Part shown: in pieces, positions 2,839-4,735 of the stretch
How the letters are laid out: each line of letters begins with the position of its first letter
Numbering within the stretch: the stretch's first letter is position 1
Virus record (IMG/VR): IMGVR_UViG_2529292904_000023
Length of the DNA stretch: 27,930 nucleotides
Direction: 5' to 3' (one strand)
DNA from: a virus
Lineage: Duplodnaviria > Heunggongvirae > Uroviricota > Caudoviricetes
The notes under the pieces: generated by a model
Database searches by the model: none
What the model was told of the DNA's origin: nothing
Seen by the model: only the letters and a program-made list of their open reading frames with translations
Position numbers and translations under genes: made by a program

Positions 2839-3414
2839 TCATAATTCTGTGCTGGTGGCAGGAATTAATTTCTGCCAGATAGCGGAAACATATTTTGCCT
2901 GATGACGGGCATCAGCCAGGGCGTTGTGCCGTTCGCCATCGAAAGGCATGTCCATTTTGGGGTCGAATCCGATGGAACGCCCAAGCGTAACGATCGTGCG
3001 TACATCGTGGTCATTCCAGTACGCCCACGGGCAGATTTGTCCTGCTCGCTCGTAAGCTCCACGTAAAATTACGTTGTCGAAGGTGGCCCCGTTACCCCAG
3101 ACTTTTAAATATTTCGTATTGTCTGCGTGCCGGTTAATGAAATGGTTTAGTTCTGAGAGAGCATCGCTGATCGACAAAGTATCATCAATACAGATTGCAG
3201 CTCGCGCTTCAGGGCTTTGTTTCAACCACCACAGGATGGTATCGCCGTCAGGTGTAGCTCCTTGCTTCATAGCACTGTCTAGGCTGACAACCGCATAGAA
3301 TTCTTGTCCGATGTCTCCGGTTTCTGGAGTGAAGAACACCGCGCCAATGGAAACGATCGGTGCATCCTTATTTTTCCCCATCGTCTCAAGGTCGATCATT
3401 AAGTTGTTCATCAC
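2839..3414 (-). CDS. DnaQ-like DEDDh 3'-5' exonuclease
   Basis: Exo I motif MIDLETMG, Exo II WGNGATFDNVIL, Exo III H-NALADARH; start overlaps the upstream stop (ATGA). Confidence 0.75.
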   Translation of the reverse strand: MMNNLMIDLETMGKNKDAPIVSIGAVFFTPETGDIGQEFYAVVSLDSAMKQGATPDGDTILWWLKQSPEARAAICIDDTLSISDALSELNHFINRHADNTKYLKVWGNGATFDNVILRGAYERAGQICPWAYWNDHDVRTIVTLGRSIGFDPKMDMPFDGERHNALADARHQAKYVSAIWQKLIPATSTEL

Positions 3415-4202
3415 TTCACCTCCTGCGGCGGTTCCGGTAGCGGCATCCAGTGAGTTGCTTGCTCAATACCATTACCCGGCTTAATCGTTGCATCTCCGCG
3501 CCGAAAGGTGCTTCCGGTATAGCGTGCGGAGCATATTAGCGGTTCAACCAGAGAGCTATCGAAATTCACCGAAATAAGCACGTTCTGGCCCTTTTCAGGC
3601 ATTCGATCACTACAGCTTATCCAACCATCCGGAGTTACCGGAGAATTGCCATTTACCAAATCAGCTCGAACATATAGCGTGTCATCATGGTGCTGATTGT
3701 GGCTGCACCACGTTAATTCGCTTAACTCGCCATCTTCTGGCCATACTCCAGCTGTTTGCAGCCAGATATGGGCTGGCGCATCCTGGCAAGGTGTATTAAC
3801 TGGAAACTTGTAAGTTTGGCTTACAGGTTGGCTACCCTGAAGCATGGCGGCGCGGCAGGCGTTCCAGCCATCTGCGTAACAATCTCTGTGTGTCTTGAAA
3901 TATGTCACCGCCCTTGGTACATCGTTTACGTCTATTTCATCCGGCACAACCGGCGCAGGTGAGTCAGCATAAACAGGAATAACGTCCGGTTGCTCTTTAT
4001 TGCTTTCATCCGTTAAAGCCCAGAATAATTTCCCGGCCGGATGTTTGAAAATATAAGCAACTGGTTCTGCTTCCAGCGATGCCAGAGCAATTCGTGCCAG
4101 TTCTTCCGCTTCTTCTGCTGGCAGTACAACGTTGCTACCAGGTCCGTATGTTTCGCGCCACTGCTTGATTGTCAGTAGTCGCTCTTTGGTAATAGTGATC
4201 AT
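3411..4202 (-). CDS. Hypothetical phage protein with a DUF551-like C-terminus
   Basis: C-terminal ...DGWISCSDRMPEKGQNVLIS...THWMPLPEPP typical of DUF551 proteins; ATGA coupling to the upstream gene. Confidence 0.5.
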   Translation of the reverse strand: MITITKERLLTIKQWRETYGPGSNVVLPAEEAEELARIALASLEAEPVAYIFKHPAGKLFWALTDESNKEQPDVIPVYADSPAPVVPDEIDVNDVPRAVTYFKTHRDCYADGWNACRAAMLQGSQPVSQTYKFPVNTPCQDAPAHIWLQTAGVWPEDGELSELTWCSHNQHHDDTLYVRADLVNGNSPVTPDGWISCSDRMPEKGQNVLISVNFDSSLVEPLICSARYTGSTFRRGDATIKPGNGIEQATHWMPLPEPPQEVK

Positions 4203-4735
4203 GCCGCGTTTCCTTCTTTCTTATTAACAATTACACCGTCATATATTTCATTAAGGTGCCCTCTCAACTCCATGCGCCTTAATGCAGATAACATGTAATC
4301 GCATTCAACCTGCTTATTTCCAGTAAATGGCTTATCGTCAGGTTTACCCCAACAGCAATTACCCTTGGGCCACCCATGTACTTTCCGTACTCTTCCGTTA
4401 ACAACGTGAAGTAATCCCCAGCCAGGTGGTAAATCCTCAATTGAAATAATTCCCGGCTCACTAATAAAGAATCGCCAGTCGCCCATTCCAAGAGACGGAT
4501 TTTTACGAAAACGCTTTTTTCTATCTGCCAACAAGTCAGCACGAGAACACTTCGCCTCTATCAGGCATGATGCTGAATTTCTGAATCCCATAGCATCTGG
4601 CTGTTCTCCGGTACTGGTTACAGCTATAAAGCGGTCATGAAAACAAACCTTGAACCCGTTGCGCTTAAGGAACTTGTACGCAATCTGACAGAGTTCGCGG
4701 TGTGTTAACGCCATATCACTCTCCTTTGATGCCAA
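4199..4735 (-). CDS. Hypothetical protein with a candidate PD-(D/E)xK nuclease motif
   Basis: GEQPDAMGF...CLIEAKCS fits a PD-x(n)-E-x-K signature; fold assignment unverified. Confidence 0.4.
   Translation of the reverse strand: MASKESDMALTHRELCQIAYKFLKRNGFKVCFHDRFIAVTSTGEQPDAMGFRNSASCLIEAKCSRADLLADRKKRFRKNPSLGMGDWRFFISEPGIISIEDLPPGWGLLHVVNGRVRKVHGWPKGNCCWGKPDDKPFTGNKQVECDYMLSALRRMELRGHLNEIYDGVIVNKKEGNAA

Follow-up and report, generated by a model that had tools for sequence, protein, structure and literature searches.

A predicted PD-(D/E)xK nuclease in an accessory cassette of a lambdoid prophage without a recombination module

Genes at the locus

We analysed a 27,930-nucleotide stretch of tailed-phage DNA (IMG/VR record IMGVR_UViG_2529292904_000023; the whole stretch is called the window below), whose gene content and gene order identify it as an E. 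coli lambdoid prophage. The segment considered here, positions 3411–4735, belongs to the early-left genes. An earlier note on this DNA had described the segment as a nuclease-rich block of three proteins (a DnaQ-like exonuclease, a DUF551-like protein and a protein with a PD-x(n)-ExK-like motif) standing in place of the canonical recombination (Rec) module. All three proteins exist, but the segment holds only two genes, those for a 171-amino-acid (aa) protein and for the DUF551 protein; the exonuclease gene abuts it and falls outside. We think it likely that the segment is part of an accessory cassette in the pL operon of a lambdoid prophage that has no Rec module, with host RecBCD and RecA carrying out recombination at Chi sites. 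The cassette and the genes that follow it are listed below in the order of transcription.

4716–5444, minus strand: Ead/Ea22-like coiled-coil protein, directly upstream of the 171-aa gene (PF13935, E=6e-30)
4199–4714, minus strand, open reading frame (ORF) open to a TTG at 4735: 171-aa protein with a predicted MmcB-like PD-(D/E)xK nuclease fold (fold and profile comparisons)
4550–4606, minus strand: predicted catalytic codons of the 171-aa protein, E37 (4604–4606), D40 (4595–4597), E53 (4556–4558) and K55 (4550–4552) (conservation and model)
3411–4202, minus strand: DUF551 domain protein, 263 aa (PF04448, E=6e-22)
2839–3411, minus strand: DexA-like DEDDh 3'-5' exonuclease, 190 aa (PF16473, E=1e-75; PHROG 255 'exonuclease')
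2521–2829, minus strand: PrtN/excisionase-like protein (PF11112, E=4e-23; PHROG 1300 'excisionase')

The early-left genes form a tightly packed minus-strand array to the left of the CI-type repressor gene. Stop and start codons overlap or abut at the gene junctions (TGAtATG, ATGA and TGATG), each with a Shine-Dalgarno sequence upstream, a pattern that indicates one operon whose genes are probably translationally coupled. The same pattern places the start of the 171-aa protein at the ATG at 4714 rather than at the TTG at 4735. This ATG lies 1 nt after the stop codon of the upstream gene, is preceded by AAAGGAG and yields a product of 171 aa, the length of most database homologues. Rfam, promoter and terminator scans show nothing notable within 3411–4735.

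The 171-aa protein

The motif that drew attention to this protein reads G-E37-Q-P-D40 ... I-E53-A-K55. A short PD...ExK motif could by itself be a product of chance. It is not dismissed as such here because of three observations: (i) its conservation in an alignment of divergent relatives, (ii) the 3177-member family to which the protein belongs and (iii) the confident fold predicted by AlphaFold2. Simple searches are uninformative: Pfam, NCBIfam and PADLOC scans give no match, and a PDB search with the single sequence returns noise only. The protein is assigned to PHROGs 9263 and 631, neither of which has a known function, and it matches 642 phage records.

Among 40 close homologues (alignment A1), the elements G-E37-x-P-D40, E53-x-K55 and S-R-x-D60-x-x-x-D64-x-x-K67 are all invariant. 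A profile search of 1.84 billion representative sequences recovers 3177 relatives at E<=0.001, counted as representatives at 50% identity, and in a 45-sequence alignment of distant relatives (A2) D40 is invariant and E37, E53 and K55 are each at least 90% conserved. The AlphaFold2 model is confident, with a predicted local distance difference test score (pLDDT) of 86 and a predicted template-modelling score (pTM) of 0.80. Its secondary-structure elements follow in the order helix, three strands, helix, strand, as in the alpha-beta-beta-beta-alpha-beta core of the PD-(D/E)xK superfamily. D40 lies just before strand beta2 (residues 41–45), and E53 and K55 lie at the end of strand beta3 (residues 48–54), so that a catalytic aspartate at the start of beta2 and a (D/E)xK signature in beta3 are both found, with conservation across the family. 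The earlier note had allowed that structure prediction might place the PD and EAK residues outside a nuclease active site; in the model they occupy the canonical nuclease positions, and Foldseek and the alignments bear out its reading of the motif.

Both structural and sequence comparisons lead to the same solved protein. Foldseek with the model returns PDB entry 3dnx as its sole significant match (E=8e-6), and 3dnx is also the sole PDB match of the divergent sequence profile (E=8e-5). The Pfam model PF06319 'MmcB-like' matches a 93-residue stretch of 3dnx at E=5e-31, and the predicted viral structures that match the model include several annotated as MmcB-like DNA repair proteins. The window protein itself does not reach the PF06319 gathering threshold and has no match at E<=0.1; weak matches are found for only 5 of 45 family members, the best at E=2.9e-4. 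The agreement of fold and profile comparisons indicates a protein of PD-(D/E)xK fold that is a distant sister of the MmcB/DUF1052 family. We conclude that the 171-aa protein has, as modelled, the PD-(D/E)xK fold with its catalytic triad in the canonical places, and that it is most likely a Mg2+-dependent DNA endonuclease of that superfamily. MmcB is described as an SOS-induced PD-(D/E)XK endonuclease required for tolerance of mitomycin C in Caulobacter (PMC9578287).

The surroundings of homologues suggest where such an enzyme might act. In Vibrio phage vB_VpS_C2, the homologue (53% identity) is flanked by two helicase genes and a primase gene, and in the Ackermannviridae phage FKP10 it lies upstream of a primase gene. 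In other lambdoid prophages, a homologue occupies the nin region with NinB on one side and RusA on the other, and on one metagenomic contig a UvrD-type helicase is encoded two genes downstream. Pfam does not recognise the annotated primases beside the virulent-phage homologues, and the primase context therefore follows the depositors' annotation. Given these positions within the replication modules of virulent phages, the 171-aa protein would act on replication or repair intermediates.

The exonuclease and the DUF551 protein

The neighbouring gene encodes a DEDDh exonuclease. Its product matches PF16473 (Rv2179c-like) with 253 bits against a cutoff of 27, and the DEDDh residues D7, E9, D112, H162 and D167 are all present. 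It is 81% identical to gp34 of phage LLS, a 'DnaQ-like exonuclease', and matches the structure of T4 DexA (8KEL) with E=4e-11. In the HMMER alignment to DexA, D83 corresponds to D90, S80 to S87 and W132 to W152, and DexA D169 lies beyond the aligned region. An E. coli DexA homologue, EcD, digests T4 DNA containing 5-hydroxymethylcytosine (5hmC) and protects cells from T4, an activity termed HREX; the EcD type is defined by loss of the DexA tetramerisation residue D90 with retention of the 5hmC-recognition residues (PMC12153337). Because D83 retains the D90 identity, the window exonuclease falls outside the EcD/HREX type. The earlier note had also raised anti-defence as a possible role for the nucleases; the published precedent for this family is anti-phage defence (PMC12153337).

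In the DUF551 protein, PF04448 matches residues 193–260 (approximately 3423–3626) with 78.7 bits against a cutoff of 22, and an identical protein in NCBI is named 'DUF551 domain-containing protein'. The N-terminal part is mosaic, its first 122 aa being 100% identical to P7 Upf89.5. The AlphaFold2 model is poor (pLDDT 48), with moderate confidence confined to a helical hairpin (residues 1–43) and a small beta domain (approximately 193–256). DUF551 is a portable domain that also occurs in YfdS and in one Ea22 variant (PMC10834534; PMC4776307); BLASTP of the window protein against YfdS gives no match at E<=1e-3. Pfam, PHROGs, PADLOC and a PDB sequence search, the last yielding noise only, reveal no nuclease family or fold in this protein. 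The description 'nuclease-rich' therefore applies to two of the three proteins named, the exonuclease and the 171-aa protein.

Rec genes and Chi sites

We scanned every ORF between cI and xis against Pfam and PHROGs. The genes upstream of those listed above, with the repressor that bounds the region on its right and the one recombination gene found elsewhere in the window, are as follows.

5441–6154, minus strand: Ead/Ea22-like protein, second copy (PF13935, E=1e-27)
6118–6729, minus strand: Eae-like protein (PHROGs 614 and 14548; 99.5% identical to phage Lys8385Vzw 'Eae protein')
6720–7283, minus strand: YfdR-type HD-domain 5'-deoxynucleotidase, an operon backbone gene (PHROG 318, E=5e-111; 97% identical to K-12 CPS-53 YfdR)
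7384–8208, minus strand: YfdQ (DUF2303) (PF10065, E=2e-92; 99% identical to K-12 YfdQ; structure 9o7m 'YfdQ Protein', E=1e-44)
8274–8636, minus strand, ORF open to 8822: YfdP homologue (98% identical to K-12 YfdP over 120 aa; PHROG 204)
9359–10051, minus strand: CI-type repressor (helix-turn-helix and S24 peptidase domains; domain scan)
14616–15005, plus strand: RusA Holliday-junction resolvase, in the early-right (nin) region (PF05866, E=1e-14)

No ORF between cI and xis matches exo/bet/gam, RecET or Erf. A tblastn search of the window with lambda-type Gam, Bet and Exo and with RecT, Exo, SSB and Gam-like proteins of related phages gives a best E of 0.06, in agreement with the earlier note that no such gene is recognisable. 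The window has no canonical lambdoid Rec module of the Red, RecET, Erf or Sak4 type, and RusA is the sole phage-encoded recombination-related function recognised in it.

The window is rich in Chi sites (GCTGGTGG). We count 14 (0.50 per kb) where 1.07 would be expected, and the highest count in 100 dinucleotide-preserving shuffles is 4. They span 2851–22556 and are concentrated left of the terminase genes, in the early-right, nin and lysis regions.

2851, 10642, 10988, 12856, 13666, 14918, 16055, 16326, 22100, 22502 and 22549, plus strand: 11 Chi sites
11264, 14022 and 16455, minus strand: three Chi sites

Chi enrichment mostly on the plus strand is a signature of Rec-less lambdoid phages. According to Zheng, Casjens, Davidson, Amundsen and Smith (2025, Genome Res), 22% of lambdoid phages are without any Rec module; such phages are enriched in top-strand Chi, and growth of the prototype, LLS, is aided by RecBCD (PMC12315714). 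The window shows the same combination of lambdoid organisation, absence of a Rec module and many, mostly top-strand, Chi sites. The same authors considered whether the yfbR/yfdQ/yfdP cluster, or the DnaQ-type nucleases found sporadically near int, might belong to a Rec module, and decided against it, in part on the ground that such genes also occur in phages with complete Rec modules (PMC12315714).

Two proteins of the operon were considered as concealed recombination functions and set aside. Residues 79–181 of the Ea22-like protein at 4716–5444 match phrog_4790, 'host RecBCD nuclease inhibitor' (E=9e-9); neither Pfam nor tblastn gives a Gam match, and the similarity is probably that of one coiled coil to another. 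YfdQ/DUF2303 was rejected as a hidden recombinase, as it co-occurs with RecT/YqaJ or with complete Rec modules; Zheng et al. likewise argue against it (PMC12315714).

The cassette in other phages

We compared the cassette, the Rec genes and the Chi content of eight phage loci with those of the window (percentages are identities to the 171-aa gene of the window).

Stx1 phage AU5Stx1: 98%; Gam-Bet-Exo upstream; no Chi in 16 kb
Ss-VASD: 99%; Gam-like-RecT-Exo-SSB upstream; no Chi in 18 kb
Stx2_09E126: 99%; Gam-like-RecT-Exo-SSB upstream; no Chi in 17 kb
Stx1a_PV728, Stx2_7982 and Stx2_3418: 98%; Sak4-like (AAA_24)-SSB-Abc2 upstream; no Chi in 14–16 kb each
P1-like phage P7 (Upf89.0): 99%; only the 10.5-kb locus covered; four Chi in 10.5 kb
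Lys8385Vzw: 96%; no Rec module, yfdPQR backbone; seven Chi in 16 kb (0.43 per kb)
Source window: no Rec module, yfdPQR backbone; 14 Chi in 27.9 kb (0.50 per kb)

All sampled copies, lambdoid and P7 alike, show one arrangement, with an Ead/Ea22-like gene before the 171-aa gene and a DUF551-type gene after it. Six of the eight phages, all of the Shiga toxin (Stx) type, carry the cassette downstream of a complete Rec module, and three module types are represented; all six of these loci are devoid of Chi. Among the sampled lambdoid phages, the 171-aa gene occurs without a Rec module only in those with a yfdPQR backbone, the window and Lys8385Vzw, both of which are rich in Chi. The cassette is thus independent of Rec modules. 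DNA matching the 1.3-kb region is present in 2715 of 5426 complete E. coli genomes.

The genes flanking the 171-aa gene are only about 40–65% identical, or are chimeric, across Stx phages and P7. The 171-aa gene itself is 98–99% identical in these phages, which places the recombination joints inside the flanking Ea22-like and DUF551 genes.

Interpretation of the cassette

Our preferred explanation, which we hold to be likely, is that the region would be part of the leftward early (pL) operon of a lambdoid prophage related to CPS-53, Lys8385Vzw, mEp460 and LLS. Within this operon, a mobile accessory cassette would comprise the Ea22-like, 171-aa and DUF551 genes, followed by the genes for the DexA-like exonuclease and the excisionase-like protein. 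Such a cassette would be of the exo-xis type and not a substitute for a Rec module, which the phage would simply lack. Recombination would most likely proceed through host RecBCD and RecA at the many correctly oriented Chi sites, as in the LLS class, with the phage RusA available for junction resolution.

Several considerations weigh against this explanation or narrow it. The large-subunit terminase gene is seemingly frameshifted, so that the prophage may be defective and its current lifestyle is uncertain. The demonstration of RecBCD dependence concerns LLS (PMC12315714). The co-occurrence with Rec modules comes from a sample of eight phage loci and is not a census. For the 171-aa protein, the relationship to MmcB is distant, as the Pfam MmcB-like threshold is not reached; its active-site geometry is judged from secondary-structure positions and alignments rather than from side-chain distances; and the substrate and role proposed for its family derive solely from fold and gene neighbourhood.

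A different possibility, which we regard as doubtful, is that the operon serves host takeover or developmental control: yfdQ, yfdR, DUF551 and their neighbours would modulate host replication initiation or the choice between lysis and lysogeny, and the nuclease would be incidental. Multicopy yfdQ-yfdR together with either yfdS, which encodes a DUF551 protein, or yfdT inhibits DnaA-dependent initiation, and YfdR binds DnaA (PMC4776307). The window YfdQ and YfdR are nearly identical to these K-12 proteins (99 and 97%), Ea22 favours lysogeny, and genes of the exo-xis region influence both prophage induction and replication of the host (PMC10834534). However, the replication phenotypes come from overexpression, and deletion of yfdQRST is without effect (PMC4776307). 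Moreover, the link between the window DUF551 protein and YfdS comes from Pfam and the literature and not from a BLASTP match, and the conserved catalytic triad of the 171-aa protein is left unexplained.

It is quite unlikely that the cassette provides anti-phage defence or superinfection exclusion, with the DexA-like exonuclease, and perhaps the PD-(D/E)xK protein, degrading incoming modified DNA. The idea follows from the precedent of EcD against T4 (PMC12153337) and from the DexA homology of the window exonuclease, which keeps the catalytic residues and, as W132, the equivalent of W152; most restriction enzymes also share the PD-(D/E)xK fold. Yet the loss of D90 that defines EcD is not seen in the window exonuclease (D83 aligns with D90 and S80 with S87), and PADLOC reports a weak generic DEDDh match for it and nothing for the 171-aa protein. 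The promoter scan found no convincing internal promoter in this repressor-controlled early operon, making expression in a lysogen doubtful, and virulent phages carry homologues of the 171-aa gene as core members of their replication modules.

We consider very unlikely the proposal closest to that of the earlier note, namely that a non-canonical recombination system, made up of the two nucleases and perhaps the DUF551 protein, replaces Red, RecET or Erf. The position in the early-left operon and the absence of any canonical Rec gene are compatible with it. In addition, a few lambdoid phages, such as epsilon34, have DnaQ-like nucleases that are counted as genuine parts of the Rec module when contiguous with other Rec genes (PMC12315714), and homologues of the 171-aa protein can occur between NinB and RusA. 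No gene for a strand-annealing protein, SSB or an anti-RecBCD function accompanies the nucleases, however, and the block occupies the exo-xis position, at the end of the operon nearest xis, rather than the central Rec position. The reading of the block as a stand-in for a recombination module is not supported, since the six Stx-type phages carry it downstream of intact modules, and nucleases of this kind, together with the yfdP/yfdQ/yfbR cluster, have been rejected as Rec genes (PMC12315714). The strong Chi enrichment, which points to host RecBCD, explains the missing recombination function better than the cassette does.

Finally, we regard it as exceedingly unlikely that the 171-aa gene is a selfish element that encodes a homing-type endonuclease and moves between E. 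coli phages. It is 96–99% identical in lambdoid phages, Stx phages and P7, between flanks that are divergent or mosaic, but such patterns are the norm in lambdoid genomes. Its fixed primase-side position in Ackermannviridae and Vibrio phages has the look of a useful gene inherited vertically, and its closest structural relatives are of the repair type (MmcB-like) and are not known homing enzymes.

The accessory cassette of a Rec-less lambdoid prophage thus remains our preferred explanation, and it places the prophage in a class already described, that of lambda-like phages that lack recombination genes and instead make use of host RecBCD by way of Chi sites. The 'nuclease block' is a common accessory cassette, and the finding matters little as a discovery. 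The sole, modest novelty lies in giving a widespread but unnamed family of phage proteins a fold and a family assignment: the 'hypothetical' family represented by PHROGs 9263 and 631 and by P7 Upf89.0, for which there is no Pfam model, could now be described as predicted MmcB-like PD-(D/E)xK nucleases. Since the 171-aa gene lies in the exo-xis region of Stx phages, which influences prophage induction, it is a reasonable candidate for follow-up.

It is also conceivable, but in our judgement unlikely, that the Ea22-like, MmcB-like nuclease and DUF551 genes constitute a functional three-gene unit and not a chance mosaic. In that event, the unit might be, for example, a replication or repair endonuclease whose activity or targeting is controlled by an Ea22-like coiled-coil protein and a DUF551 adaptor, and it could contribute to the stress and induction phenotypes ascribed to the ea22 region of Stx phages. 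The nuclease family would then be a widespread, unnamed accessory of phage replication and a fixed neighbour of primase in at least two groups of virulent phages.

Other features of the window

To the right of cI, the window encodes cro, cII, Rha/Ash, replication genes, Dam, RusA, KilA-N, DUF968/HNH, Q, a NanS-type esterase, lysis functions and a Nu1/gpA terminase. The large terminase gene, of gpA type, is broken into two plus-strand ORFs in different reading frames, as listed below. The first encodes the ATPase domain and most of the nuclease domain, and the second the remainder of the nuclease domain; the split either reflects a frameshift, in which case the prophage is defective, or stems from a sequencing error.

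1–2103, plus strand: low-GC segment (34–40% GC) to the left of the excisionase-like gene, carrying a DUF2713 protein (1–957) and a 178-aa ORF (1567–2103)
2492–2517: strong hairpin terminator
11310–11495, plus strand: Rfam matches to isrK (11310–11386) and C4 antisense RNA (11408–11495), inside an Ash/Rha-type gene (10950–12095)
18088–18336: three tRNA genes
18449–18657, plus strand: small RNA STnc100
18658–18717, minus strand: anti-GcvB small RNA AgvB
24836–26437, plus strand: large terminase, first ORF
26439–26822, plus strand: large terminase, second ORF

The low-GC segment looks like moron cargo between xis and an integrase gene beyond the window. The isrK/C4 arrangement resembles the P1/P7-type antirepressor control element. 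The tRNA, STnc100 and AgvB stretch lies upstream of the NanS-type esterase gene, which is the position of stx in Stx phages; no toxin gene is seen near this stretch (18088–18717). With regard to YfdQ, the 36 chains of the deposited entry 9o7m point to a large homo-oligomer; we found no paper on this entry. A DUF2303 protein of phage JC1 is reported to be virion-associated (PMC9144972).

Comparison with known systems

The closest solved relative of the 171-aa protein is found in the MmcB/DUF1052 family (PF06319; 3DNX, SPO1766; Caulobacter MmcB), with which it shares a D...ExK-SR-DF-AD-K motif at about 24% identity. The 171-aa protein is phage-encoded and expressed early, whereas MmcB is the product of an SOS-regulated chromosomal gene; crosslink tolerance and SOS regulation are known for Caulobacter MmcB only (PMC9578287).

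T4 DexA and EcD (8KEL, 8KEN) share with the window exonuclease the DEDDh 3'-5' exonuclease family, the catalytic residues and the W152 equivalent. The window protein is shorter (190 versus 227 aa), with some DexA loops missing, and unlike the definition of the EcD type it keeps the equivalents of both S87 and D90.

The block resembles the exo-xis region in lying upstream of xis in the pL transcript and in combining Ead/Ea22 coiled-coil genes with a DUF551 module, as in the Ea22_V2 variant. It differs in lacking an exo gene on its right. The exo-xis reviews consulted, including a modelling review, make no mention of the 171-aa nuclease-fold protein.

CPS-53 (yfdP-yfdQ-yfdR-yfdS-yfdT-torI) has the same gene order, with an excisionase-type gene last, and its YfdP, YfdQ and YfdR are 98, 99 and 97% identical to those of the window. 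Its YfdS matches the first 45 aa of the window Eae-like protein. Unlike the window, CPS-53 is without Ea22, nuclease and exonuclease genes.

The LLS type offers the nearest parallel to our interpretation. Like the window, it has a lambdoid gene order, no gene for a strand-annealing protein, Exo/RecE, SSB or an anti-RecBCD function, a yfdP-yfdQ-HD phosphatase backbone beside the repressor gene and a DnaQ-like exonuclease gene beside xis. We count 23 Chi sites in LLS, 20 of them on the plus strand, a density of 0.54 per kb against 0.50 per kb in the window. The window differs from LLS in being a prophage whose terminase gene may be frameshifted. It also carries an extra insert, comprising the Eae-like, the two Ea22-like, the 171-aa nuclease and the DUF551 genes, between the HD gene and the exonuclease gene, where LLS has just two small ORFs.

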